Shown here one piece after another: positions 2,770 to 62,314 of a stretch of DNA of 64,000 bases. Each line of letters opens with the position of its first letter. Within the stretch, counting starts at the first letter, position 1. The position numbers were made by a program, and so were the translations under genes. Origin of the DNA: Escherichia coli (GTDB lineage: Bacteria > Pseudomonadota > Gammaproteobacteria > Enterobacterales > Enterobacteriaceae); the NCBI RefSeq assembly GCF_011045215.1, contig NZ_CP049201.1, one strand, 5' to 3'. The notes beneath the pieces were generated by a model. That model searched no databases, was not told the origin of the DNA, and worked only from the letters and a program-made list of their open reading frames with translations.

Positions 2770-3813
2770 ATGCGCTATCGCATTTTCCTTCTCTTTTTTT
2801 TCGCTTTGTTGCCGACGTCTTTGGTGTGGGCGGCACCAGCGCAACGGGCGTTTTCCGACTGGCAGGTCACCTGTAATAACCAAAACTTCTGCGTGGCGCG
2901 TAATACGGGCGATCATAATGGACTGGTGATGACCCTGAGCCGCAGCGCCGGGGCGCATACCGATGCCGTTTTACGTATTGAGCGCGGCGGGTTGAAGTCG
3001 CCGGATGCGTCTGAAGGGGAGATAGCGCCACGGCTGCTGTTAGATGGTGAGCCGTTGGCGTTAAGTGGTGACAAGTGGCGGATTTCACCATGGTTATTAG
3101 TAACCGATGATACGGCAACCATCACCGAGTTTTTGCAGATGATTCAGGAAGGGAAGGCGATCACCTTACGCGACGGCAATCAGACCATTTCTCTGAGTGG
3201 CTTAAAAGCGGCGTTGTTGTTTATTGATGCTCAGCAAAAGCGCGTTGGCAGTGAAACCGCCTGGATAAAGAAAGGGGACGAACCGCCGCTCAGCGTACCG
3301 CCAGCGCCTGCGTTGAAAGAGGTCGCGGTGGTTAACCCAACGCCGACGCCACTCTCACTCGAAGAACGTAACGATTTGCTGGATTATGGAAACTGGCGGA
3401 TGAATGGTCTGCGCTGCTCGCTTGATCCGTTACGTCGTGAGGTGAATGTCACTGCGCTGACTGATGATAAAGCGCTGATGATGATTAGCTGTGAGGCAGG
3501 GGCCTATAACACCATTGATTTGGCATGGATTGTGTCGCGTAAAAAGCCACTAGCCTCGCGCCCGGTTCGGTTGCGTTTGCCGTTCAACAACGGTCAGGAG
3601 ACGAATGAACTGGAACTGATGAACGCAACATTTGATGAGAAATCGCGTGAACTGGTGACCTTAGCGAAAGGGCGCGGATTAAGCGATTGTGGCATTCAGG
3701 CGCGCTGGCGCTTTGACGGTCAGCGTTTTCGCCTAGTGCGTTACGCCGCAGAACCGACCTGCGATAACTGGCATGGGCCAGATGCCTGGCCCACGTTGTG
3801 GATCACCCGTTAA
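2770..3813 (+). CDS. ypfG: Periplasmic protein YpfG (signal peptide, DUF-type)
   Basis: 347-aa ORF with N-terminal hydrophobic signal sequence; synteny between nudK and tktB. Confidence 0.7.
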   Translation: MRYRIFLLFFFALLPTSLVWAAPAQRAFSDWQVTCNNQNFCVARNTGDHNGLVMTLSRSAGAHTDAVLRIERGGLKSPDASEGEIAPRLLLDGEPLALSGDKWRISPWLLVTDDTATITEFLQMIQEGKAITLRDGNQTISLSGLKAALLFIDAQQKRVGSETAWIKKGDEPPLSVPPAPALKEVAVVNPTPTPLSLEERNDLLDYGNWRMNGLRCSLDPLRREVNVTALTDDKALMMISCEAGAYNTIDLAWIVSRKKPLASRPVRLRLPFNNGQETNELELMNATFDEKSRELVTLAKGRGLSDCGIQARWRFDGQRFRLVRYAAEPTCDNWHGPDAWPTLWITR

Positions 3814-18679: not shown

Positions 18680-20079
18680 ACACTCGCCAGCTACTGAGCG
18701 TCGGTATCGATATCGGCACTACCACCACCCAGGTGATTTTCTCCCACCTGGAACTGGTTAACCGTGCGGCGGTGTCGCAGGTGCCGCGCTACGAATTCAT
18801 CAAACGCGAAATTAGCTGGCAAAGCCCGGTGTTCTTTACCCCTGTCGATAAACAGGGTGATTTAAAAGAAGCGGAACTGAAATCGCTGATTTTAGAGCAA
18901 TATCAGGCTGCGGGCATTGCACCGGAAAGCGTTGATTCTGGTGCCATCATCATCACCGGTGAAAGCGCGAAAACCCGCAATGCTCGCCCGGCGGTGATGG
19001 CGCTCTCTCAGTCGCTGGGCGATTTTGTCGTTGCCAGCGCCGGGCCGCACCTCGAATCCGTGATCGCCGGTCACGGAGCCGGGGCACAAACCCTTTCTGA
19101 ACAACGGCTGTGTCGGGTACTGAATATCGACATCGGCGGTGGCACCGCGAACTACGCCCTGTTCGATGCCGGAAAAATCAGCGGCACTGCCTGCCTCAAC
19201 GTCGGTGGTCGCCTGCTGGAAACCGACAGCCAGGGGCGCGTGGTTTACGCTCATAAACCGGGGCAGATGATTGTGGATGAGTGCTTCGGCGCAGGCACCG
19301 ACGCCCGTTCGCTGACCGGCGCGCAGCTGGTGCAGGTTACCCGGCGGATGGCAGAGCTGATTGTCGAAGTGATTGACGGAACGCTCTCGCCGCTCGCGCA
19401 GGCATTGATGCAAACCGGTTTGCTGCCCGCAGGTGTTACGCCCGAAATCATTACGCTTTCTGGCGGCGTGGGCGAATGTTATCGCCACCAGCCCGCCGAC
19501 CCGTTCTGTTTTGCCGATATTGGCCCGCTTCTGGCAACGGCGCTGCATGACCATCCGCGCCTGCGTGAGATGAACGTGCAGTTTCCGGCGCAAACCGTGC
19601 GTGCCACGGTGATTGGCGCGGGGGCACATACCCTTTCGCTCTCTGGCAGCACAATCTGGCTTGAGGGCGTACAACTGCCGCTGCGCAATTTGCCGGTGGC
19701 GATCCCGATTGATGAAACGGATCTGGTGAGTGCCTGGCAACAGGCGCTGATTCAACTGGATCTTGATCCCAAAACTGACGCGTACGTGCTGGCGCTTCCC
19801 GCCTCGCTGCCTGTGCGTTACGCCGCGGTACTGACGGTCATCAACGCGTTGGTCGATTTCGTCGCGCGTTTTCCGAATCCGCATCCCCTGCTGGTGGTGG
19901 CCGGGCAGGACTTTGGTAAAGCTCTGGGCATGTTGTTGCGCCCACAGCTACAACAACTCCCGTTGGCAGTCATTGACGAAGTGATTGTCCGCGCGGGGGA
20001 CTATATCGACATTGGTACGCCTCTTTTTGGCGGATCGGTTGTGCCGGTGACGGTGAAATCACTCGCATTTCCTTCCTGA
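18676..20079 (+). CDS. eutA: Ethanolamine ammonia-lyase reactivase EutA
   Basis: 467-aa ORF, 4-nt overlap with eutH; eut operon synteny; followed by the inserted element. Confidence 0.9.
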   Translation: MNTRQLLSVGIDIGTTTTQVIFSHLELVNRAAVSQVPRYEFIKREISWQSPVFFTPVDKQGDLKEAELKSLILEQYQAAGIAPESVDSGAIIITGESAKTRNARPAVMALSQSLGDFVVASAGPHLESVIAGHGAGAQTLSEQRLCRVLNIDIGGGTANYALFDAGKISGTACLNVGGRLLETDSQGRVVYAHKPGQMIVDECFGAGTDARSLTGAQLVQVTRRMAELIVEVIDGTLSPLAQALMQTGLLPAGVTPEIITLSGGVGECYRHQPADPFCFADIGPLLATALHDHPRLREMNVQFPAQTVRATVIGAGAHTLSLSGSTIWLEGVQLPLRNLPVAIPIDETDLVSAWQQALIQLDLDPKTDAYVLALPASLPVRYAAVLTVINALVDFVARFPNPHPLLVVAGQDFGKALGMLLRPQLQQLPLAVIDEVIVRAGDYIDIGTPLFGGSVVPVTVKSLAFPS

Positions 20080-20172
20080 ATACTGTAGTTATCAGGCGTG
20101 GCGCTGGGTTGCGGGGTGTTAGTGGGATTATATCCGGCTGTGTATCCGGTCGGGGTGATTGGTCTGTATAGC

Positions 20173-20194
20173 AAAACCCGGCGCGGGGCCGGGT
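20173..20194 (-). terminator. Intrinsic terminator (minus-strand orientation)
   Basis: On minus strand reads ACCCGGCCCCGCGCCGGGTTTT: GC stem CCCGGC/GCCGGG followed by U-run, 7 nt after stop of the 20201-20761 gene; identical copy at 21822-21843. Confidence 0.6.
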
Positions 20195-20200
20195 GAACTA

Positions 20201-20761
20201 TCATTCAGGGAACAAGTTGATTTGAAGCAAACTGCCAATGTATTTACCAGTGCTTTTAATTTTTCGCTTTGATGGCTTACACGAATTCAGGTTGACACCA
20301 GCCTGGCTAGATATTGGCTTGTATTGCCGCTCCGCCAGTACGATCAGGTCTGCCGCGTCTTTTAGCTTTCCATCGTTAGCCAGTTCCAATGCTCGATCCG
20401 CCATTTGCCCGCATTGTTGAATCAGCTTAAGTTGCGATACCTCCAGTCGCAATTGCTGGATTCGTTCTACCACTTTCGCCCTAATGCGCTTAGTTTCACG
20501 CATTCCCATTCTTAATGCCTGGTTGCCAGTAAGTGAGTAAACCTCTTTTTCTTTCCTGAAGTTTGCGGCTTTACCGTCAGCTTGGACGCGCATTTTATGC
20601 GCTTCCAAGAATTCGCCCTCCAATTCATCCCTGATCTTCGCGTTGAATCTGTCGTTCTTGAGTTCATTTAACCCTTCCGCCTTGCGGATCTGGTTGATTA
20701 ACTCCAACAATTCATCACTGCGGATACGCCACTCGCTATCAACCTGTACCAAGTCAAACAT
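20201..20761 (-). CDS. Hypothetical phage protein (186 aa from ATG with GGGAG RBS; coiled-coil, possibly regulatory)
   Basis: ORF with good RBS upstream of internal ATG at 20761 (track start 20854 is TTG); no confidently recognised domain. Confidence 0.55.
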   Translation of the reverse strand: MFDLVQVDSEWRIRSDELLELINQIRKAEGLNELKNDRFNAKIRDELEGEFLEAHKMRVQADGKAANFRKEKEVYSLTGNQALRMGMRETKRIRAKVVERIQQLRLEVSQLKLIQQCGQMADRALELANDGKLKDAADLIVLAERQYKPISSQAGVNLNSCKPSKRKIKSTGKYIGSLLQINLFPE

Positions 20762-20924
20762 GTTGTTGCTCCCGTTTTGCTGCCATAGGGCAACGGCTCG
20801 CCAGCCTTTATCACCTCCTTTAGTTGTTGCGATTCTTAACTGAATGGTTATCAAAACGCTGCGTTAATATCATTGATATGTATCAAATTTGTTTTGTGAC
20901 GCGACAATGCCTTGTGAATATCAA

Positions 20925-20949
20925 TAAAAAACCCAGCGCTATGGCTGGG
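20925..20949 (-). terminator. Intrinsic terminator (minus-strand orientation)
   Basis: Minus strand CCCAGCcatagcGCTGGG followed by UUUUUU, 45 nt downstream of stop of 20995-21723 gene. Confidence 0.5.
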
Positions 20950-20994
20950 CTTCTCTTGATGGCTGGTTTTGTAGCTAATCGTTGGCTTTAAGGG

Positions 20995-21723
20995 TTAAGC
21001 AACAATATTAATCCCGCTCCTTGTCGCTGCCTCTTTGGCAATTTTCCCCTCGTCCTCCAGTTTAGCTAACGCCTTGTACATCCAGTGGCGGCCCGGTGCG
21101 CCATGCAGCTTGCCATCTTTGCCGATCTTACCGAACGCATGTAACGCCAAATCGTCGATAGTCCCCTTGTATCCGCCTTGCTCCTTAAGCCATTGCTCAA
21201 GCTGTTCTACTTTGAATTTTGCCGGACGTCCGCCAGCCGCTTTTTGTTGTTTAGCTGGTTCTTCTGCAATATCGCTTTTGTTGTTTAAGTCCGTCATGAC
21301 TGGTTCTCCTACAATAGCGTCGCCCTTGGTCTCGATTTGTTGATTAACTGGTTTGTCTACAATATCGATTTTGTTGTTTAGCTGGTTTTTCAACATATCA
21401 ATCTCAGCCTTTAGCGCCTCGTTTTCTCTGGCTAGTTCTTCGCAACGCTTGATAAATTTTTGTTCCATGCCGTCCGGGCTATCAACGTGCGCCGTACCCA
21501 TTACGATCTTCCCGTTGCTATCGAAGATGACAGCTTGCCAACCGACTGCGGCGAGCATTTTAAACACATCATCAGCGGTCTTGTTTGTTGTATCGCGACG
21601 CCCTTTAAACTTGTGGCTAGCAGCGCCTTTGCCTTTGAAGCCCATTGCCTCAGCGACATCTTGCCGCGTCATCTTGCGAGCGCGCTTGTTCATGCCTAAC
21701 TCAACCCAATCCATGTATTCCAT
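20995..21723 (-). CDS. Hypothetical phage protein with internal tandem peptide repeats (242 aa)
   Basis: ORF with GAGGT RBS; DNA and protein contain imperfect tandem repeats (LNNKIDIVDKPVNQQ / LNNKSDIAEEPAKQQ); basic N-terminal region possibly DNA-binding. Confidence 0.6.
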   Translation of the reverse strand: MEYMDWVELGMNKRARKMTRQDVAEAMGFKGKGAASHKFKGRRDTTNKTADDVFKMLAAVGWQAVIFDSNGKIVMGTAHVDSPDGMEQKFIKRCEELARENEALKAEIDMLKNQLNNKIDIVDKPVNQQIETKGDAIVGEPVMTDLNNKSDIAEEPAKQQKAAGGRPAKFKVEQLEQWLKEQGGYKGTIDDLALHAFGKIGKDGKLHGAPGRHWMYKALAKLEDEGKIAKEAATRSGINIVA

Positions 21724-21821
21724 ACATTACCTCATTTTGTCGCTAAACGTTTTGCTTTCTAATTTATCAACAAAAAAGCGGGTGATGGTAGCCGCTTTGA
21801 TGGGGAAGTTGACAGGGATCA

Positions 21822-21843
21822 AAAACCCGGCGCGGGGCCGGGT
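21822..21843 (-). terminator. Intrinsic terminator (minus-strand orientation), identical copy of 20173-20194
   Basis: Same 22-bp sequence aaaacccggcgcggggccgggt; 18 nt downstream of stop of AlpA-like gene 21861-22091. Confidence 0.6.
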
Positions 21844-21860
21844 ATTAGCAAGTTAGATGA

Positions 21861-22091
21861 TTACTGGGTATCGCTGTCAGAAAGTAGTCCAATTGATTTA
21901 AAGAATTTCATCACATCCTGATAGCGATACATGACGCCCCGCCCGGTTCCCAGCACATCAACAGGGTCGGGGAATGGAGTTCCGTTCTGTTCCCATTTCT
22001 TACGCCACGAATAAAACGTTCCCCTGCTAATTCCGCCCAGCATCCGGCAGATGGCAGGGCGGCTAAGAAGGATTACTTCATTTTTATCCAT
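21861..22091 (-). CDS. AlpA-family phage transcriptional regulator / excisionase-like HTH protein (76 aa)
   Basis: Motif LSRPAICRMLGGISRGTFYSWRKK...FPDPV typical of AlpA/Xis-type HTH; GGGAGA RBS. Confidence 0.6.
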   Translation of the reverse strand: MDKNEVILLSRPAICRMLGGISRGTFYSWRKKWEQNGTPFPDPVDVLGTGRGVMYRYQDVMKFFKSIGLLSDSDTQ

Positions 22092-22110
22092 TGTTTAATC
22101 TCCCGTGTGT

Positions 22111-22299
22111 TTATTTTGCGTAGATTAAGGCAAATGCTCTTTTGGCTTTGCTTAGTTCGTATTCGCGTTTTTCTATGATTGCCATCAGTTCTTGTGCGGT
22201 GGCTGGCACGCCCGCTCTTATCAGCGCAATCTTAGTATCCATAGCGCACACTCTTTCACGCACCATATCGAAGATAATTTCCGCTCTATCGTGTTTCAT
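22111..22299 (-). CDS. Small hypothetical protein (62 aa)
   Basis: ORF with strong GAGGTGA RBS 5 nt upstream of ATG; 19 bp upstream of AlpA-like gene, likely co-transcribed. Confidence 0.5.
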   Translation of the reverse strand: MKHDRAEIIFDMVRERVCAMDTKIALIRAGVPATAQELMAIIEKREYELSKAKRAFALIYAK

Positions 22300-22648
22300 G
22301 ATTTCACCTCATATTTGTTGCTAAACCTTGTAAACCCTTGTTTGACTACAAAATACACCTGGTTAAGCGACTGATAAAATGATTTAGGTCAATTTATTGG
22401 TTGATGATTTATGTCTGATTGGATTTGTCTACAAATGGCAGGTTAGTCAACAAATGATGAAACCAGGGAATGGCGGTTATAATGTCAGCGGGGATTGTGA
22501 GAAAGGCCCGGGTAGGTTGCTAACTGCCTGGGCCTTTATTTTTGGCGCGTGTACGTGAAATCTGGAAAATTTGCAGGGTAGTTGTTGAGGGATTTTTCGC
22601 GTAGGAGCGTGAAGGGTCCGCCAGTCATCGCCCTGACGTAGCGGTGAA

Positions 22649-23050
22649 TTACTTGCGAGGCTCACCCATCGGCCAGGCACCTTCATTGCGACGATAACCA
22701 ATCCGGTACTCTTCCGGCAGCGGCAAGCCCTGCTCACGATATGGACGCAGATCGAAGCCAAAAACAGGATCGTCGTCGTAGGCGAGGAATAGCCCGGCAG
22801 GCTCTGCCACGCGTTCGATAATCAGTTCCCCATCTTCAACGAAGAAGATCAGATTATCGCGAAAGTCCGTTACCTCACTGACGTGATAACATTCGGCATG
22901 TGCGTCCAGCCAGGCTTCTCGGTATTCCTGAATCTCGGCTTCTGACCATGTTGAAACAGGACGCTCCCAAATTCCCAGGCTGGATTTGCCCTGGCGGGAG
23001 AATAATTTTGCCTCTTTGCTCTGCTCTGGTTTTCTGTTTAAAAAGCTCAT
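22649..23050 (-). CDS. Hypothetical protein (133 aa)
   Basis: ORF with AAGGAGAA RBS; no recognised domain. Confidence 0.55.
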   Translation of the reverse strand: MSFLNRKPEQSKEAKLFSRQGKSSLGIWERPVSTWSEAEIQEYREAWLDAHAECYHVSEVTDFRDNLIFFVEDGELIIERVAEPAGLFLAYDDDPVFGFDLRPYREQGLPLPEEYRIGYRRNEGAWPMGEPRK

Positions 23051-23186
23051 TATTCTTCTCCTTTGAACGGATTGTTCTTGCTCTCTAATAACTTAGCGCG
23101 ACCCAGTAACGTCCGGGCAAGCGCCTCCGCCTTCCTTAGCCTAAGCCCTGCGTCTTCTGCGTCCAGATCTACATTCCTGATAGCCT

Positions 23187-23450
23187 CTACAGCCTGCTCC
23201 GCTGCGTCCGGGCGTGAATCCACTTAAATATGCCGATATGCTCACGAAAGTCTGGATGCTCATATTGCCAGCGGCAGATTGTTCTGAAGCTCGGCATGTC
23301 AGGCATGTTGCCAATCTCTCTGAGACTATGGCCTTCAGCTACCAGCAAGCAGATTTCTTCAGCGATAGCGACCCCATACTTAGCGCTTTTTCTGCTTAAA
23401 CTTGTGACATCAACAGGTAAGTTATTGATTTCTTTATCATCACCCTTCAT
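23187..23450 (-). CDS. Small HTH protein resembling the DNA-binding domain of phage terminase small subunits (87 aa)
   Basis: Motif AEGHSLREIGNMPDMPSFRTICRWQYEHPDFRE resembles TerS-type HTH; GGGGGTAA RBS; family assignment is from memory and tentative. Confidence 0.4.
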   Translation of the reverse strand: MKGDDKEINNLPVDVTSLSRKSAKYGVAIAEEICLLVAEGHSLREIGNMPDMPSFRTICRWQYEHPDFREHIGIFKWIHARTQRSRL

Positions 23451-23525
23451 AATTACCCCCGAATTGATAGCGAATTGATAGCGAATTACCCCGAATTACC
23501 CCCGAATTACCCCCGAATCACCATC
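23451..23525. repeat. Tandem array of about 6.5 copies of an 11-bp unit (AATTACCCC(C)G x4 and AATTGATAGCG x2)
   Basis: Directly visible: aattaccccc g aattgatagc g aattgatagc g aattacccc g aattaccccc g aattaccccc g aatcaccatc, exactly filling the gap between the 93-aa gene stop and the 87-aa gene start. Confidence 0.85.
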
Positions 23526-23527
23526 AT

Positions 23528-23809
23528 TTAACCCTCGCCTACGTCTGCGTCGATGCTTGCTAACTGGCTGTGTAGATCGCGTTCAATCATTTTTACCTTT
23601 TTCACAAAATCCCTTTCCTCGGCGGTGGCGGGCGCGCCCTGGGCTATGTTTTTCGTGAGGTCGTGGAAAGTGCCGAAAACATAAAGGGAGAACAGCCTTA
23701 ATTGTTGCCGCTTCATTGGCAAATCACTGTTGCTATGTTTGATCTCAGCGACGCCTTTCGAAATAACACGGGCCATCCCATGACAAATTCTTAACGTAAG
23801 CGCAGACAT
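23528..23809 (-). CDS. Hypothetical protein (93 aa)
   Basis: ORF with GGGGAG RBS; no recognised domain. Confidence 0.5.
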   Translation of the reverse strand: MSALTLRICHGMARVISKGVAEIKHSNSDLPMKRQQLRLFSLYVFGTFHDLTKNIAQGAPATAEERDFVKKVKMIERDLHSQLASIDADVGEG

Positions 23810-23930
23810 GATATTTACTCCCCGACTGGTATAATGAACGTGGTTTTAAACGTTGCTATTTGCTAACCATTTAATCTGTTAACTCAATTTCGCATTGTTG
23901 GCCCGGCACGAACACCGGGCTTTTCTTTAC

Positions 23931-24272
23931 CTATTCGAAATAGCTTCCAATATCCGGTGTCCGGGTATCAGTTTTCCGGGTCGGCTCGAAGTACGATTCC
24001 AGATCCGGCGTTTTCGGCCCACGCTGGGCGTTGGCGGCGGGTTGCTTTTCTTCTGGCTGTTCCGGCTGTTTACTACCAAATCGGCGCTCCAGTTGGTCCA
24101 TCAGCACTACCATCATTTCCTGGACCAGCTTTTCATCGGCTTTATCAAGGTTCTCCAATACCATCGCCATCCCTTTGCGGAATTTAAGCTCAGCGTCGTC
24201 CGGTTCCGGTGCTGATTCGTTTGCTTTAACTGCCAGGGCGATCCGGCGTTTTGCTTCATCCAAAAAATTCAT
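23931..24272 (-). CDS. Hypothetical acidic protein ending in repeated SYFE motif (113 aa)
   Basis: ORF with GGGGGAA RBS overlapping stop of upstream gene; C-terminus ...DLESYFEPTRKTDTRTPDIGSYFE. Confidence 0.5.
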   Translation of the reverse strand: MNFLDEAKRRIALAVKANESAPEPDDAELKFRKGMAMVLENLDKADEKLVQEMMVVLMDQLERRFGSKQPEQPEEKQPAANAQRGPKTPDLESYFEPTRKTDTRTPDIGSYFE

Positions 24273-24277
24273 TTTGT

Positions 24278-24721
24278 TTATTCCCCCATGTGGAAATAGT
24301 CATCTAAGCGGCGATTAAACTCGTCGCTGCCATCGAAATATTCACGGATACTTTTATTGACCAGATCATCACCGTCGAAATACTGGCGCGTGAAATCGTC
24401 CAATTCCCCATCGAAGTATTGACGTGTGAAATCGTCTAATTCCCCTTCAAAATATTGACGCGCATCAGGCGCTCTGTTTGGCGCTGTAGCAATCTCAGAT
24501 TGATTGCCCTGTAACTTATCGACGTTTGCTAAATACACGCCCAGTGAGCTGTTTGTTCCCATTACCGCAAGCATTTTCCGGCGATCTGCCATGTTCGGCG
24601 CGAGCGATGATAATTGAGCTTTAATTTTGTCCACTTCCTGATTAACAATACGGTCAATCAGTGGTTGATTCGTGCGAATAATTTCCTGTGCCAACTGGCG
24701 AATATATTCTTTGCGTGTCAT
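24278..24721 (-). CDS. Hypothetical protein with C-terminal tandem RQYF(D/E)GELDDFT repeats (147 aa)
   Basis: ORF with GGAGAT RBS; encoded by about 3.5 tandem 36-bp DNA repeats near 24330-24465. Confidence 0.55.
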   Translation of the reverse strand: MTRKEYIRQLAQEIIRTNQPLIDRIVNQEVDKIKAQLSSLAPNMADRRKMLAVMGTNSSLGVYLANVDKLQGNQSEIATAPNRAPDARQYFEGELDDFTRQYFDGELDDFTRQYFDGDDLVNKSIREYFDGSDEFNRRLDDYFHMGE

Positions 24722-24739
24722 TTCTTATCTCCGTTCATC

Positions 24740-25123
24740 TCATTTCTGTAAAAAACCCATACCGTGGCCCAGGCGATTTGAAATTTTCCCGGCAAGCATC
24801 CGGCGAATATGTTTTTCGTTGATGATGTCGTGAGTGACCGGATCTTCACCTTTCATACATTCCGGCATCTGGTCAAACAATACGGAAGCGCCTTCATCAA
24901 TAATCTCAGTTAAGACTGCTGGCAGCATATTAATGATGCGTTCTGCTTCGTCGTTCATTGCTTTATCGAACGCTTTTTTATCCATTGCTTCGGCGGATGG
25001 TTTGTAATTGTCGCCAGTCAGGTTAAGGTAAGTGTTGTTTGGGTGATACATGGCATTCACTCCTTTTACTTTGATTGTTGCGATTTCTTTGTTTTTGTTA
25101 ATTGTGGTGCCTTTGACTTTCAT
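24740..25123 (-). CDS. Hypothetical protein (127 aa)
   Basis: ATG overlaps stop of HNH gene (ATGA), suggesting translational coupling; no recognised domain. Confidence 0.5.
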   Translation of the reverse strand: MKVKGTTINKNKEIATIKVKGVNAMYHPNNTYLNLTGDNYKPSAEAMDKKAFDKAMNDEAERIINMLPAVLTEIIDEGASVLFDQMPECMKGEDPVTHDIINEKHIRRMLAGKISNRLGHGMGFLQK

Positions 25124-25539
25124 GCTGCTTCTTCCTTCAATAATTGTGGCAATTTGCCTGTTAGTTCGATTTCTTCATTAATAGATGCAAGTAACTGTCT
25201 CAGTTTGCGATGTAATAGCTGGTGACGCTCTCTCGGCATTTTTACCAGGTTGCTTAAGCGGTTATTCTGCGGATCGTAGTCCCGGTGATGGATATCATAT
25301 TTTCGCTCATCGTAAACACCGTAGCACCATAACCAGGCAGCCTTTTCTATTGTCATGCAGGTACGTTTTCCGTTGCTTAAACAAATGGTTATACTCAGGT
25401 GACCGCGATGTTTTTCGTTTAAGCTGCCTTTAATTACCTGGCCTGTGCTGCGGTTGTGAAATAAACCAGTTTCAGGGTCGTAGTGATATTTCTGTCGTAA
25501 TATATCAACTGATAACCGTAGTCTTGTAAGATTGTCCAT
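25120..25539 (-). CDS. HNH homing-type endonuclease (139 aa)
   Basis: Motif YDIHHRDYDPQNNRLSNLVKMPRERHQ (HH...N...N...H) typical of phage HNH nucleases; GAGGTAG RBS. Confidence 0.7.
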   Translation of the reverse strand: MDNLTRLRLSVDILRQKYHYDPETGLFHNRSTGQVIKGSLNEKHRGHLSITICLSNGKRTCMTIEKAAWLWCYGVYDERKYDIHHRDYDPQNNRLSNLVKMPRERHQLLHRKLRQLLASINEEIELTGKLPQLLKEEAA

Positions 25540-25571
25540 GATGTTCTACCTCAATGTGATTGCTGTGTTAA

Positions 25572-25757
25572 TTATCTTTCTTCTTGTGGCCTATTCAGCC
25601 AGGCCTCGATCTCGCTACGCCAGAATAATAAACGACAATTTCGCGGCGTAAATGGTTGGGGTATTGTCTTATCTTTTAATAGCCATCTTCGAATCGTTCT
25701 TGTTGATACCCCCGCTATTAATGCGAAAGCTCGCAGATCTATAACTTCATCTCTCAT
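25572..25757 (-). CDS. AlpA-like HTH regulator (61 aa from ATG with GAGGT RBS)
   Basis: Sequence LIAGVSTRTIRRWLLKDKTIPQPF...WRSEIEAWL matches AlpA/Xis-type HTH pattern; track ORF start 25862 is a TTG extension. Confidence 0.55.
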   Translation of the reverse strand: MRDEVIDLRAFALIAGVSTRTIRRWLLKDKTIPQPFTPRNCRLLFWRSEIEAWLNRPQEER

Positions 25758-26537
25758 GTTCTTACCTCGATTAAAAAGGACCGCCCCCAGGGAAAGAAGA
25801 AAGAGGAAAGAGGAAAGAGGAAAAACTTCCTGGAGGCGGGTAATTCGGATTCCTTGAATCAATATCCCATGTGATACTTAATATTATAAAGGGCGGCGGG
25901 CTATGTCGCTATTTTTGCCATAGTGTGACACCATTAATTTATTAACAAAAAGTGCTATTTATTAAATCTTTTTTCGGCAGGTGCAAGAAAAATAATTGCG
26001 ACACGGTAGGGTAGCGGGCGATAATAATCATGTAAGGAGTAGCCACCTTACGCCTCCAAATGTGATCGATAAAAATAATAGTCTCAATTCTTTCTCCCGC
26101 TTCTCGGCGGTTTTTTTGCCTGCAATCACACATCAAAAAAACACATCGAATTGATATGCCTTTAAAACGCAATATAACGCATTTTGACGGCCTTAATTTT
26201 TGCCTATCCACTCGGAAGCGTAAGCCTGTTTTGATTCGTCTGGCGTGGAATGGTGCGGCGGTAATATCAGATCTCAGCGTTCTGTGTGGTGGGATGGAAT
26301 AGCCTGGCAGGATCTGCGTGTGATTTCATTCATCCAACCTTGGATGAATGGTCCGATCTGGTCAGTAGTCCGGCACAAATAAAAAGCGCCTGCGGGCGTA
26401 GCAGACGCTTTGTGTACAGGCTTATCAGTACGGGATGTGCACGAATGATTATACCACCCTCAGAAAAACGTTTGCTTTTGCACTTAAACGGATAAGTGGT
26501 ATTTCTTGGTCTTCATTGGTTTTAGCTCACCATAGGC

Positions 26538-26765
26538 TCATTTAGGTGCGCCCCTGTCGATAATTCGGTACATGTTCTCGGTATATCTCCCGTTAATCAC
26601 CGTTCTGGTAACAACAATCACACCGTTTTCCTCCAGAAAGGCAATGGCCCGCTTCACTCCCTGGCGGCTTACACCGGATAGCTGCGCCAGCCTGTCAATG
26701 GAGATGTTGTATTTGTCCGGCTGGCTTGTCAGGATCTGGAATACCGCTCGTGCTGTTTTCGTCAT
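26538..26765 (-). CDS. Small winged-helix DNA-binding protein (75 aa), candidate regulator
   Basis: Sequence ISIDRLAQLSGVSRQGVKRAIAFLEENGVIV has HTH character; divergent from the plus-strand cassette; RBS weak. Confidence 0.45.
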   Translation of the reverse strand: MTKTARAVFQILTSQPDKYNISIDRLAQLSGVSRQGVKRAIAFLEENGVIVVTRTVINGRYTENMYRIIDRGAPK

Positions 26766-27037
26766 GGCAAAAACTCATTGAAATTGGATACCCTTAGAAC
26801 GCTCTCAAACGCTCCGTAATGCGATGAGAATTTTACCTAAGCAAGTGTAGCTCTTTATTAGTTTTATGATGCCGTAGGCCGATAGAAGGTGCGCTCTCTG
26901 AAGTTTCATTGTCTATCAGTGGTGGGTAATGCTGCCTTTACTATTGGCGTCAAGAAAATCACTGGTGTAGATTGGGCGAATAGTTTACTATTCAAACAAG
27001 GCACAATGGCCTTAGCGGATTGATGTCAGGAGATACC

Positions 27038-27385
27038 ATGTCAAAAATAGTTACTTTGTTTGCGACTAAGCGAGAAGGGAAATCCCTTTCTGTGCGCACT
27101 CGTAAGCCAAAAGCTATGACTGGCTTGCGTAAAACAAATCGTCTGACGCATCTTGACGCGTTAGCGTATCGACTAGGATACCAGTTGGTGCGCGGTAAAA
27201 GTGTCATGTTTCGCTACACTGCTACTCTCGATCACGAAGAAAACAAAGTGATGAATGCGGCCTCGCCTATGGCTGTACCACGAGTAAAAAAAATGACGTT
27301 CACACAAGCGTGTGATTTATCAAAAGATTTATTCGATTCACGAGAAGAACGCTTAAAGAGTGTAAGCTTTGATGGTCCAGAATGA
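27038..27385 (+). CDS. Basic 115-aa protein, candidate partner (antitoxin or regulator) of downstream YafO-like gene
   Basis: ATG at 27038 preceded by AGGAGA RBS; stop overlaps start of next gene by 14 nt; basic N-terminus and acidic C-terminus; no recognised family. Confidence 0.5.
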   Translation: MSKIVTLFATKREGKSLSVRTRKPKAMTGLRKTNRLTHLDALAYRLGYQLVRGKSVMFRYTATLDHEENKVMNAASPMAVPRVKKMTFTQACDLSKDLFDSREERLKSVSFDGPE

Positions 27386-27887
27386 ATTTATTGGTAAGGT
27401 CTACAGTGATAACAAGTTTAAAACAAACGATGAATTAAAGAGCTTTAAGGATTCGTTTATTTATCATTGGAGATATGGACATCATCCTGATTTTGGAAAG
27501 GATACTCTTTTCCATAAACCCCCGTGTGTATATCCTATCCATTTACGTAAAGTCCATGTAAATATTGGTCTTTATACCAATCAGTACGGCTATAGCGGGA
27601 CAGAACAATGCTGGGATGACTGGTCTACTGGTCGTTATGGTCCCGGTGGTTTCGAAAAAGTTACCCCTACATCTGATGCTTATCTTATATACGCTGTATG
27701 TAAAAATAGAAATGCTGGCGTGTTAGACTTCTGGTTTCCTCCCGCACACAAAAACGCTGAGTTCGAATCCTCTGTACAGTTTGTGGCTGAGATGGCTGAT
27801 AAGTTTTATGAGTCTATCAAGGCGGACCCGATGCCGCGCGATCAGAATCCTTGGCATACGGGGTATATAGTTAAAAAACCAGCCTGA
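27372..27887 (+). CDS. YafO-family toxin-like protein (171 aa)
   Basis: Motifs F-I-Y-H-W-R-Y-G...PDFGKDTLF, YPIHLRKVHVN and SDAYLIYAV line up with recalled YafO motifs (FISYKRDG...PDIFGRDALY, ERVAHIHLAN, DEAHLVYCQG); similarity judged from memory, not computed. Confidence 0.45.
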   Translation: MVQNEFIGKVYSDNKFKTNDELKSFKDSFIYHWRYGHHPDFGKDTLFHKPPCVYPIHLRKVHVNIGLYTNQYGYSGTEQCWDDWSTGRYGPGGFEKVTPTSDAYLIYAVCKNRNAGVLDFWFPPAHKNAEFESSVQFVAEMADKFYESIKADPMPRDQNPWHTGYIVKKPA

Positions 27888-28438
27888 TCCACGCAATACT
27901 GATTGTTTTTGGCCTTGTATGGTGTGGTCTGATTTGAGGCAAAATTATTTAATCCCTTAAAAAACTAACTTCAAAAGACTAAAACCAGGGGGATGGTCCC
28001 TCTCGCTCCGCTCCAGGTACCATCCCTGTCGGGATGGGTTTATTGTAGAGTTAAAATTAATTACTCACATCGTCACACCTTGCGAAAGTTTTGCTCAATT
28101 ATCATTCAAACATAGCACAAAAAATATTCGATTTAGTTAGTGTGCACTGACTTTTTTATCAATTTACTTTCATTCGAAAGTCATGGGTTAAATATTAATC
28201 ATCTGGCTGTGGCACGCATGGATTCACCGAGGGTATTTTGGACCATTTGGTCAAAATTCATAAGTACATGATTTCATGGTGATTTATTTTTCTGTATCTT
28301 GCTTTCATTCGAAAGTGGAAACGAAGAATTGGCAATTTATTGATTCAGATCATTGACATTGCATATTTGTGGCGGTTGTCACGGTTGTTTTTTGAGCGCT
28401 TCAACCGTCGATATTGAGTATAAACCCGGCCTTATAGT

Positions 28439-29644
28439 TCACGGTTCAAGTGGATTACCGTCACCAGCCAATATTGAATCAATAGCGTCGGCGTAATCCT
28501 GCATCATTGCTCGCCGTTGCTTCAGGTAGGCCGCCTGGTTATAAACGCCGCGCACACCTTTCGGGACGTGGGCCAATTGGATTTCGATCCAGTCTGGTGA
28601 GTATCTGCCAGACTCATTAAGCGCCGTTGAAAAGGTGGTCCGCCAGCCATGACCAGTGGCAATGGATTTATAGCCGATCCTCTCAAGCGCCTTCAGTATC
28701 GCGCTGGCTGAAAGTGGCTTATCCATGAATCGACCAGGGAAGACGAAAGCACTGTATCCGCTCCTTGTAAACTGGTCCTGTAATAGCTCCACCGCCTGCC
28801 GTGATAGCGGGACCACATGCGGGCGGCGGGCCTTCATGACTTCAGCGGGCAATGTGATTGTTGCGTCCTCCAGGTTTATCCATTCCCAACGGCACAAACG
28901 CAGTTCTGCGGTCCTTAATGCCGTTAATATAAGCAAACGTATTGCCGTCTGAATCTGGACGCTCCCGGCCCTCTCAAGGGCTTTGTAGAAGGCCGGAATT
29001 TCACTAATCGGTATCCACGCGTTGTGACCAGGTCGGCGGGCCTTCAGTGCCGTATCAAGATCTGCAACCGGATTCCTCGTTACCAGTTCGGTGATAACGG
29101 CAAACTTGAAGATCTCACCGATGCGCTGGCGTAGCTTGCGGGCCTGCTCCGGTGCGGTACGTTCTTTCTTCTGGAGTAATGCCAGCACGTCACGGGCGGT
29201 TATATCGACAATCGACCGCTTGCCAAGTACCGGATAGACGTCTTTTTCTAGGGCCGATCTGACCTGTTTTGCATAGGATTCCGACCACCCTCCAACCCTA
29301 GTAGCAAACCAGTCTTCCGCCACCTTCTTAAATCCTGCCGCCATGTTGAGCGCATCAATGGCTTTTTCCTTGCGGGCTTGTTCCACTGGGTTAATTCCAT
29401 TGGCAATAAGGGATCTGCTCTCCGTGGCGCGCCTGCGTGCTTCTTTGAGTGTGATTAGCGGGTAAACACCAATAGCCTGCAAAAACTCTCGTTTATTCAA
29501 CCAATACCTGAATCGCCAGTATTTCGAACCGTTGGGATGCACCAGCAAAAACAGCCCCGGCGTCAGTGAATCGGTGAGTTTATAGGGCTTGTCCTGCGGC
29601 TGTGCGGCGTCTATGGCCTTTGCTGTGAGTGGTGTCTTGCTCAA
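28439..29644 (-). CDS. intZ: Tyrosine-type site-specific integrase (prophage integrase)
   Basis: 401-aa ORF with phage integrase features (N-terminal arm-binding domain, C-terminal catalytic region with ...HGWRTT...); sits at the element end beside eutB as intZ does in E. coli K-12; start appears to be TTG. Confidence 0.8.
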   Translation of the reverse strand: MSKTPLTAKAIDAAQPQDKPYKLTDSLTPGLFLLVHPNGSKYWRFRYWLNKREFLQAIGVYPLITLKEARRRATESRSLIANGINPVEQARKEKAIDALNMAAGFKKVAEDWFATRVGGWSESYAKQVRSALEKDVYPVLGKRSIVDITARDVLALLQKKERTAPEQARKLRQRIGEIFKFAVITELVTRNPVADLDTALKARRPGHNAWIPISEIPAFYKALERAGSVQIQTAIRLLILTALRTAELRLCRWEWINLEDATITLPAEVMKARRPHVVPLSRQAVELLQDQFTRSGYSAFVFPGRFMDKPLSASAILKALERIGYKSIATGHGWRTTFSTALNESGRYSPDWIEIQLAHVPKGVRGVYNQAAYLKQRRAMMQDYADAIDSILAGDGNPLEP

Positions 29645-29832
29645 AACCGGATACCTTGATTTAACGACTGGATAACCCCGATCATGTATCCGGCGCGTTC
29701 GGTTGCGTTCGGCAGGATAAGTAACGGGCGTATTAAGTGGAACACCTTACAGGACAAGGGCTAACGATGAAATAGAATTGTTTGCAGGCTGTGAGAAATG
29801 TTAATCGTCACTTCTTCCTGAGGGAACGACTT

Positions 29833-36160: not shown

Positions 36161-36373
36161 ACGGCCTGAGTTGTAATAATAAAGTTCCAGATGTTATATC
36201 GTATCGCGTAATCCGTTACGACCGTTTGCTGTTGAGAATTGTTTTACTTTTCATTTCAATAGTTGACAACTCCCCATTATGCCACTTTTTCAACCGATTT
36301 TCGTCAGATATTGGCTAATTCGACCGTTCACGCCATAATCAGCCTTTTAACCCGCAAAAAGGTAACGAATACC

Positions 36374-61914: not shown

Positions 61915-61990
61915 TGGTGGGTCGTGCAGGATTCGAACCTGCGACCAATTGATTAAAAGTCAACTGCTCTACCAACTGAGCTAACGACCC
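61915..61990 (-). tRNA. lysV: tRNA-Lys (anticodon UUU)
   Basis: Reverse complement gives GGGTCGTTAGCTCAGTTGGTAGAGCAGTTGACTTTTAATCAATTGGTCGCAGGTTCGAATCCTGCACGACCCACCA, 76 nt with CCA; last gene of val-val-val-lys tRNA operon. Confidence 0.9.
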
Positions 61991-61994
61991 GAAG

Positions 61995-62070
61995 TGGTGG
62001 GTGATGACGGGATCGAACCGCCGACCCCCTCCTTGTAAGGGAGGTGCTCTCCCAGCTGAGCTAATCACCC
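61995..62070 (-). tRNA. valY: tRNA-Val (anticodon UAC)
   Basis: Reverse complement gives GGGTGATTAGCTCAGCTGGGAGAGCACCTCCCTTACAAGGAGGGGGTCGGCGGTTCGATCCCGTCATCACCCACCA; third of three identical copies in transcription order. Confidence 0.85.
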
Positions 62071-62116
62071 ACTTCGGTATTTCACATTTTTACAAGAAAT
62101 TTAGCTGGTGAGAAAG

Positions 62117-62192
62117 TGGTGGGTGATGACGGGATCGAACCGCCGACCCCCTCCTTGTAAGGGAGGTGCTCTCCCAGCTGAGCTAATCACCC
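62117..62192 (-). tRNA. valX: tRNA-Val (anticodon UAC)
   Basis: Identical 76-nt tRNA-Val sequence; middle copy. Confidence 0.85.
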
Positions 62193-62238
62193 ACTTCGGT
62201 ATTTCACATTTTTACAAGAAATTTAGCTGGTGAGAAAG

Positions 62239-62314
62239 TGGTGGGTGATGACGGGATCGAACCGCCGACCCCCTCCTTGTAAGGGAGGTGCTCTCCCAGC
62301 TGAGCTAATCACCC
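62239..62314 (-). tRNA. valU: tRNA-Val (anticodon UAC)
   Basis: Identical 76-nt tRNA-Val sequence; promoter-proximal copy, divergent from gltX. Confidence 0.85.

Follow-up and report, generated by a model that had tools for sequence, protein, structure and literature searches.

What purpose could be served by a run of short direct repeats packed into the gap just before a gene for a small-terminase-like protein? The question is raised by a 64-kb stretch of the Escherichia coli contig NZ_CP049201.1 (hereafter the window, in which coordinates are given), where an island of the CPZ-55 family, lying at the intZ site between eutA and eutB, carries tandem units of 10–11 bp directly upstream of a gene related to the small terminase subunit (TerS) of phages. 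With a probability of about 0.55, slightly better than even, the array serves the TerS-like protein of the island as its DNA-recognition site, and is as such a candidate pac or cosB-like site of a CPZ-55-family satellite. This reading follows from the relatives, in which the sequence at this place changes and the spacing does not. The argument is built on the homology of the protein, the position and periodicity of the array, its conservation and its linkage to terS.

The array and the gene behind it

Both flanking genes are on the minus strand, and the array is accordingly read in gene sense, in which six units follow one another in the order A A A' B B A. A preliminary description of the window had reported an 11-bp-period tandem array of two unit types upstream of a TerS-like gene, and both the array and its unit types are borne out by direct reading and by Tandem Repeats Finder, which returned one period-11 row at 23460–23487 (100% matches) and a second at 23482–23522 (93% matches, 3% indels). 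The units had also been called precise and said to fill the whole gap, which holds in part: five are 11 bp long but A' has lost a G and measures 10 bp, and the series does run to 3 nt before the ATG, but the 9 nt beside the stop codon of the preceding gene are not repeat. An exact-unit search of the window found three A and two B units at the array and zero elsewhere. In a power spectrum of A/T versus G/C, the array peaks at 10.5–11 bp with a power reached by 0 of 2000 shuffles, and for phasing at 10.5–11 bp it ranks first among 12,784 sliding 80-bp segments of the 64 kb.

The gene that the array precedes encodes a protein matching Pfam Sf6_terminase (PF20901, E = 1.3e-11, residues 28–112) and phrog_1482 (terminase small subunit). 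Moreover, the profile of its family matches the solved structures of Sf6 gp1 (3HEF, 4DYQ) with E = 6e-9 over residues 23–107, a span that covers the N-terminal helix-turn-helix (HTH) domain and the oligomerization helices. Judged by these profile matches, the product is a true TerS homologue of the Sf6 gp1 type. E. coli K-12 YffO is a member of the same family; a published comparison has already related it to Sf6 gp1 and ascribed to it both an HTH and an AT-hook (PMC10380284). The full-length 133-aa protein is represented by, for example, WP_231290322.1 and WP_053275001.1; 8 complete E. coli genomes have an undamaged terS-like gene, and dN/dS ratios of 0.04–0.29 across the family, with dS > 1 between clades, indicate strong purifying selection. 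In the window, alignment places a 1-bp deletion near 23209–23210 (GCCC-GGAC, against GCCCAGGAC in relatives), which leaves an open reading frame (ORF) at 23187–23450. The "87-aa TerS-like protein" described earlier is thus rightly assigned to TerS, while its length is the product of this deletion in a gene for 133 amino acids (aa). Together with the genes on either side, the terS-like gene forms a conserved trio in the order upstream gene, array, TerS-like gene, downstream gene, in which a recognized DNA-binding domain is found only in the TerS-like protein.

The position of the last unit invites a different explanation. Its G-run lies at −10 to −6 from the TerS-like ATG, which fits a Shine-Dalgarno role for the gene, as the preliminary description had suggested from the sequence, and relatives have GGAGG or GGGGG in the same place. 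An array that abuts the start codon and bears such a G-run could be an operator, through which the TerS-like protein, AlpA or another regulator of the island or of a helper phage sets the expression of the terS-like and downstream genes, including by autorepression that occludes the ribosome-binding site. HTH proteins commonly bind direct repeats, and several are encoded by the island. However, a promoter scan revealed no sigma-70-like promoter on the gene strand within or beside the array, and the gap, with 67–117 bp from stop to start, is internal to a block of co-directional genes. In addition, RNA folding of the array region is no better than that of shuffled sequence (z = +0.6), and the five to eleven phased sites far exceed what an operator needs. 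Control of expression as the main role is therefore unlikely, and it could coexist with a role in packaging.

Several further identities were considered and rejected. Clustered regularly interspaced short palindromic repeats (CRISPR) consist of 23–55-bp repeats with unique spacers; the units here are 10–11 bp, adjoin directly and have no spacers, so the earlier statement that this is not a CRISPR array is correct. For a structured RNA, the array yielded no match in Rfam and the folding value given above. The AABBA-type alleles have only three G-runs and the arrays of other clades none, which disposes of a G-quadruplex. A phase-variable contingency locus was also rejected: copy number is polymorphic, but the array is non-coding, is spanned by no promoter and leaves the ribosome-binding site and ATG constant.

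The gap before terS across the family

Relatives were grouped into clades ranked by TerS identity to L002, an intact member of the family. In the window clade (the window and L001–L008), A and B units are identical in every copy except for A' of the window. The comparison of copy number across strains proposed in the preliminary description gave five alleles among these nine sequences, AABBA, AAABBA, AABBBA, AAAABBA and AAA'BBA, the last being that of the window; none of them alters the last unit, the ribosome-binding site or the ATG. At 70–91% TerS identity (L009, L011, L013, L014 and L016–L019), the gap holds 5–8 units made of TTAGCGA and a variable 4-nt spacer (type I), set 11 bp apart in 39 cases and 10 bp apart in 6. 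Core positions are kept in 41–48 of 53 units, and the spacer is nearly random. Several of these arrays end in, or are flanked by, TAAC-GGGGG-TAAAT, which resembles the A unit and bears the ribosome-binding site, so that the A-B-A layout of the window has counterparts in relatives. The core of the B unit, TCGCTA, is the reverse complement of TAGCGA and also differs from it by two substitutions. At 42% TerS identity (L025–L027), seven units of 10–11 bp, TCAGAGAGGGG and TTAGCGAGGGG, are arranged in the order flank, center, flank, much like A-B-A in the window.

At 37–50% TerS identity, in L023, L028, the plasmids L037 and L038 and K-12 CPZ-55, there are no exact repeats and A/T tracts recur every ~10.5 bp. 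In each of these loci, taken whole, the gap ranks first for phasing among the 80-bp segments. For L023 and L028, 0 of 2000 shuffles attained the observed phasing, and the K-12 yffN–yffO gap (117 bp, L040 2884–3000) is the most strongly 10.5-bp-phased stretch of its locus. All intact relatives examined, including those with only 37% TerS identity, therefore have an element of 10–11-bp period, ~55–117 bp in length, before the terS-like gene. The exception in position is the rearranged 8-kb plasmid record L039, where three TTAGCGA-type units flanked by phased A/T tracts (3330–3450) lie downstream of a truncated TerS-like gene of 83 aa, not upstream of an intact one. Position, a 10–11-bp period and overall length are conserved at the gap; sequence is not. 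The preliminary description had named absence of the array from related elements, or hypervariability there, as the outcome that would speak against it. Instead, the array is present in them with its core and period kept, and this outcome favors function.

Copy number that varies among close relatives, together with perfect unit copies within the window clade as after recent slippage, would also be expected of a neutral minisatellite that arose by replication slippage and sits before terS by an accident of descent. Against this, the gap is periodic in clades whose terS synonymous sites are saturated and which have different units or no exact repeats, and the TTAGCGA core persists though terS dS exceeds 1 between clades. 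The positions that vary all lie in the 4-nt spacer, and the core is preserved. Furthermore, the imperfect array of the L013 type, 99 bp long, is identical in all six complete genomes carrying that type, the strains of which come from six countries. A neutral origin of this kind is very improbable.

The array also travels with the terS-like gene. When L004–L008 are compared with the window, identity is only 67–69% for the upstream gene but 98% for the terS-like gene, and the array units do not differ at all. An upstream gene swapped beside an unchanged terS-like gene and array indicates a mosaic breakpoint upstream of the array, and by this comparison the array is inherited in the same mosaic block as the terS-like gene. 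In L025 the upstream protein is 66% identical to that of the window, but TerS is 42% identical and the array is different.

The CPZ-55, L023, L028 and plasmid clades, which conserve A/T-tract phasing with no sequence motif, point toward another account, namely that the gap is architectural bent DNA for a host nucleoid protein (IHF, Fis or H-NS) or for a helper-phage protein, possibly as a decoy for the helper terminase or as a silencing site. Phased A-tracts are also found in ordinary chromosomal promoter DNA, the second-strongest 10.5–11-bp A/T-phased stretch of the window (~36266–36360) being an intergenic region of this kind outside the island. However, type I arrays and the L025 array, with weak or no A/T phasing, keep the TTAGCGA core at 11-bp spacing, which points to base-specific recognition, and co-inheritance with the terS-like gene likewise argues against a purely architectural role. 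Bent DNA as the whole explanation is quite unlikely.

Iterons typically consist of head-to-tail repeats that recur about once per helical turn, and the array has this form. The preliminary description had accordingly proposed a site for a DNA-binding oligomer, either a terminase small subunit or a replication initiator. The terminase option is supported comparatively by homology, by the periodic gap that relatives keep and by linkage to terS; the option of iterons at an origin of the island has fared badly. Some relatives do encode a DUF5906 primase-helicase, and others a DEAD helicase with a DnaD/HTH_36 protein. Nevertheless, such replication genes, where present, lie 3–4 kb and several genes from the array and never beside it, the array in those relatives always standing directly before the terS-like gene. 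Window-type elements have no recognizable replication initiator, and the gap, filled between coding regions, leaves no room for an A+T-rich unwinding element. Iterons are hardly credible at this locus.

A satellite-like island and its relatives

The extent of the island and its features are given in the table. A search for att repeats at the island ends was negative. The window was aligned by BLAST with L002 and L001; window 22293–22626 corresponds to L002 5646–5975 and window 22617–25053 to L002 8467–10895, which defines the deletion junction. The gene lost there lies in intact relatives at L002 5999–8188 and encodes a tail tape-measure protein of 726–790 aa (phrog_1538, E = 1e-105), the best phage matches of which are only 30–43% identical. 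With its terS-like gene frameshifted, one array unit short of a base and its tape-measure gene deleted, the window copy is a decaying, non-functional relic.

Table. Coordinates of the island, the array and the surrounding genes in the window.
Feature	Position	Strand	Remarks
CPZ-55-family island, ~9.7 kb	20072..29814 (approximate)	-	extent by BLAST alignment to intact relative L002
IntZ-type tyrosine integrase	28439..29644	-	homologues annotated intZ, flanked by eutA and eutB
AlpA-like HTH gene, 61 aa from ATG	25572..25757	-	heads the co-directional gene block containing the array
HNH endonuclease gene	25120..25539	-	phrog_99, E = 9e-11; PF13392 in relatives
Upstream gene, YffN position, 93 aa	23528..23809	-	stop adjoins array; conserved across most of the family
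Stop codon TAA of upstream gene	23530-23528	-	directly before the 9-nt leader
Intergenic array	23451..23527	-	between stop of the 93-aa ORF and ATG of the TerS-like gene
9-nt leader ATGATGGTG	23527-23519	-	adjoins stop codon; non-repeat
Unit A, ATTCGGGGGTA	23518-23508	-	first copy
Unit A, ATTCGGGGGTA	23507-23497	-	second copy
Unit A', ATTCGGGGTA	23496-23487	-	10 bp; A unit minus one G
Unit B, ATTCGCTATCA	23486-23476	-	first copy
Unit B, ATTCGCTATCA	23475-23465	-	second copy
Unit A, ATTCGGGGGTA	23464-23454	-	last copy; then ATT, ATG at 23450
TerS-like gene, Sf6 gp1 / YffO family	23050..23450	-	133 aa if intact; pseudogene in the window
Downstream gene, YffP position, 133 aa	22649..23050	-	start overlaps TerS-like stop; conserved in the family
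Tape-measure deletion junction	22617..22626	.	~2.49 kb lost, whole tape-measure gene gone

Intact copies, such as those of strains CFIAFB20180540 (locus L002), C41 and KSC9, are more informative. They carry an integrase, a YafO toxin pair in some cases, small HTH proteins, an AlpA-like regulator, sometimes the HNH gene, several small uncharacterized genes, the trio, the tape-measure gene and further HTH and Ant-like proteins. Capsid and TerL (large terminase) genes are found in no family member, no TerL gene stands beside the TerS-like gene, and intact members with the tape-measure gene have no tail-tube gene. The absence of TerL from the family is consistent with a satellite that borrows the TerL of its helper. 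As in phage-inducible chromosomal islands (PICI), an integrase, an AlpA-type regulator and a gene of the packaging-redirection type are combined, with no capsid or TerL gene, within ~10–11 kb, and by its gene content the island looks like a phage satellite. The satellite papers retrieved make no mention of a satellite with its own tape-measure protein, and literature searches found no paper describing the array, treating CPZ-55 as a satellite or reporting experiments on the element.

The family includes chromosomal islands, one circle and small plasmids. The circle is an 11,404-bp circular contig without an integrase (L011 / L012), and L037 and L038 are the plasmids pRHB29-C22_2 and pRHB34-C15_2, which are 8.9–9.6 kb long, non-mobilizable and equipped with a serine recombinase; the circle and both plasmids keep the upstream gene, the phased gap, the TerS-like gene and the downstream gene. 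The K-12 cryptic prophage CPZ-55 also belongs here, its yffN-yffO-yffP being the trio (L040 2515–4007), and in L040 the yffL–yffS block is carried on a Klebsiella pneumoniae IncFIA/IncR plasmid. Among 5,426 complete E. coli genomes, three subtypes of the family were counted in 8, 6 and 17. The family is rare and, except for the Klebsiella pneumoniae plasmid copy, appears confined to E. coli-type genomes. No TerS-like relatives were found in viral contigs or in GTDB species-representative genomes, and tblastn against phage genomes reached only ~30% identity, to TerS of Bordetella and Pseudomonas phages, in which terS has no phased element nearby. In a search for a helper phage, the units were compared with IMG/VR viral contigs; type II units had no match, and three type I matches were unrelated coincidences.

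The neighbors of the terS-like gene resemble nothing specific. The upstream protein is predicted by AlphaFold to be a three-helix bundle (pLDDT 90.7), a generic fold for which a fold search gave no significant match in the PDB, and the downstream protein has a predicted alpha+beta fold (pLDDT 80.9), with no family match and no fold match in the PDB. For the AlpA-like gene, the L002 homologue matches phrog_66 (excisionase / transcriptional regulator), and the proteins of relatives match HTH_17 or Phage_AlpA. In the leader of the AlpA-like gene, ~30–65 nt upstream of the start codon and downstream of a TATAAT-like hexamer, a heptamer repeat (TCTTTCC, 4.7 copies in gene sense, 25791–25823) is a possible further regulatory repeat of the island. 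The HNH gene is variable cargo located between alpA and the small genes; some relatives have it, and the closest intact ones, such as L002, lack it.

Other repeats of the window were also recorded. A 36-bp tandem repeat at 24375–24462, within a 147-aa ORF, encodes YFDGELDDFTRQ about three times. The gene of a 242-aa HTH protein contains a 34-bp tandem repeat at 21332–21399 (2.1 copies, 83% matches) that itself includes the inverted motif TTGTTGA...TCAACAA. Outside the island, a tRNA cluster at 61915–62314, Lys(ttt) followed by three Val(tac), is ordinary chromosomal content and accounts for a 122-bp tandem repeat in the Tandem Repeats Finder output.

The array as a possible packaging site and its known counterparts

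How might the array work if it is the recognition site of the TerS-like protein? The proposal consists of ring formation, binding, TerL recruitment and packaging. The TerS-like protein would form a gp1-like ring with outward-facing HTH domains about one helical turn apart, and units recurring once per turn would let the DNA wrap around the ring, with about one unit for each subunit. The complex of TerS-like protein and DNA would then recruit the large terminase of the helper phage, and the excised island would be packaged instead of, or alongside, the helper, while ribosome binding for the TerS-like gene would be a second function of the last unit. A TerS ring measures ~300 Å around, its neighboring HTH motifs are separated by about one turn of B-DNA, and ~100 bp could be wrapped on it (PMC4737164); 5–8 sites spaced once per turn fit this geometry. 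As at pac and cosB-type sites, the array stands beside the TerS-like gene of its element, in a helical-turn phasing compatible with a multimeric TerS. The direct repeats of the SPP1 pac site span the start of its terS gene (PMC4737164), and several phages encode TerS next to their own pac site.

Several observations weigh against this interpretation. In the TerS of Bacillus phage SF6, isolated DNA-binding domains bind DNA weakly and with little sequence preference (PMC4737164), and ring terminases are thus not known to require a unit of defined sequence. In three real phages whose TerS is distantly related, there is no phased element close to terS, and in L039 no TerS-like gene comes after the phased array. 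Unit type does not covary with the putative recognition helix, SFRTICRW occurring with both A/B and TTAGCGA arrays; the window clade is set apart from type I only by three residues bordering the DNA-binding domain on its N-terminal side (S22, G26 and I29), a difference that goes back to a single evolutionary event. Finally, the perfect identity of units within the window clade could be due in part to repeat homogenization and not to selection.

The AT-hook gives a similarly mixed picture. Four residues (GRPT) at TerS-like positions 22–26, containing the AT-hook-like GRP motif, are lost in the window and type I clades (alignment A4), and the motif is retained in YffO, P0010, P0011 and P0014. 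Its covariation with A/T-phased arrays is imperfect, since L025 has the hook without A/T phasing and the window clade has AATT phasing without the hook.

A more elaborate form of the packaging proposal is offered only tentatively, and we consider it doubtful. The array would be a docking track with one unit per subunit, each 11-bp unit seating one HTH of a gp1-like octamer. Its two unit types, the G-run and the TAGCGA core, kept in flank-center-flank order across clades, would be read by two specificities, possibly in a mixed ring of satellite and helper TerS akin to Rpp-type redirection, giving a packaging signal for the satellite only. On this view the family, with K-12 CPZ-55 and small plasmids among its members, would be a class of E. 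coli satellites not described before, one that supplies its own tail tape-measure protein.

Repeated binding elements for small terminases are already a known kind of feature. What appears to be new is an uninterrupted, almost perfect tandem series of 11-bp units of two types, with natural alleles that differ in copy number, placed before a TerS of the Sf6 type in an uncharacterized satellite-like family that includes K-12 CPZ-55. The diffuse nature of known pac sites, and the readiness of isolated DNA-binding domains to bind nearly any DNA, have left open in the field how ring-shaped small terminases select viral DNA. In this family a homologue of the structurally solved Sf6 gp1 is paired with a compact, countable and periodic candidate site, and natural variants of the site (5–8 units, two unit types, 10- versus 11-bp units, A/T tracts only) form a series suited to the wrapping model. 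In addition, the K-12 "cryptic prophage" CPZ-55 is recast as a member of a satellite-like family of islands, circles and small plasmids, some with a tape-measure gene.

Among known systems, lambda cosB (R3-I1-R2-R1) is bound by the small terminase gpNu1 and lies immediately upstream of the Nu1 gene. Like the array, it places multiple TerS-binding elements directly before the small-terminase gene, and bending is part of cosB. It differs in that its R elements, three in number and 16 bp long, are mixed in orientation, that an IHF site is present and that gpNu1 is a dimeric winged-helix protein, whereas the array consists of 5–8 head-to-tail units of 10–11 bp, or phased A/T tracts, before a predicted ring protein of the Sf6 gp1 type, with no cosN-like nicking site identified. 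The pac site of phage P1 is likewise a packaging site of many short direct repeats, but these are 6-bp Dam-methylatable motifs in two clusters, recognized by PacA/PacB, and the units of the array contain no GATC.

In Sf6 and P22-type phages, pac is located within the terS gene and does not take the form of a tandem array. Sf6 gp1 of the Shigella phage (3HEF, 4DYQ) is homologous to the TerS-like protein over the HTH and oligomerization helices, with an identity of only ~25–30%. The pac sites of SPP1 and SF6 (pacL-pacC-pacR; box a, b and c) come closer in form, having direct repeats and bent DNA over the terS promoter and start, and wrapping of ~100 bp around a TerS ring with HTHs one helical turn apart has been proposed for them (PMC4737164). 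The SPP1 repeats, however, are few, dispersed and dispensable for binding of the isolated domain, whereas the array is contiguous and near-perfect, with a conserved core.

Satellites supply the other comparison. In Staphylococcus aureus pathogenicity islands (SaPI) and PICI, a satellite-encoded TerS has a pac site of its own, and E. coli PICI have Rpp. There, too, a small integrative element that lacks capsid and large-terminase genes brings its own protein of the small-terminase type. A satellite TerS presumably redirects the packaging motor of the helper to satellite DNA. The CPZ-55 family differs from SaPI and PICI in using a protein of the Sf6 type and in the tape-measure gene of its intact members. 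The nearest counterpart of the window island is K-12 CPZ-55 (intZ, yffL–yffS), which shares the eutA/eutB intZ site and the trio yffN-yffO-yffP and differs in having phased A/T tracts in place of exact tandem units and in a YffO that keeps the GRP AT-hook lost from the window clade through the four-residue deletion.

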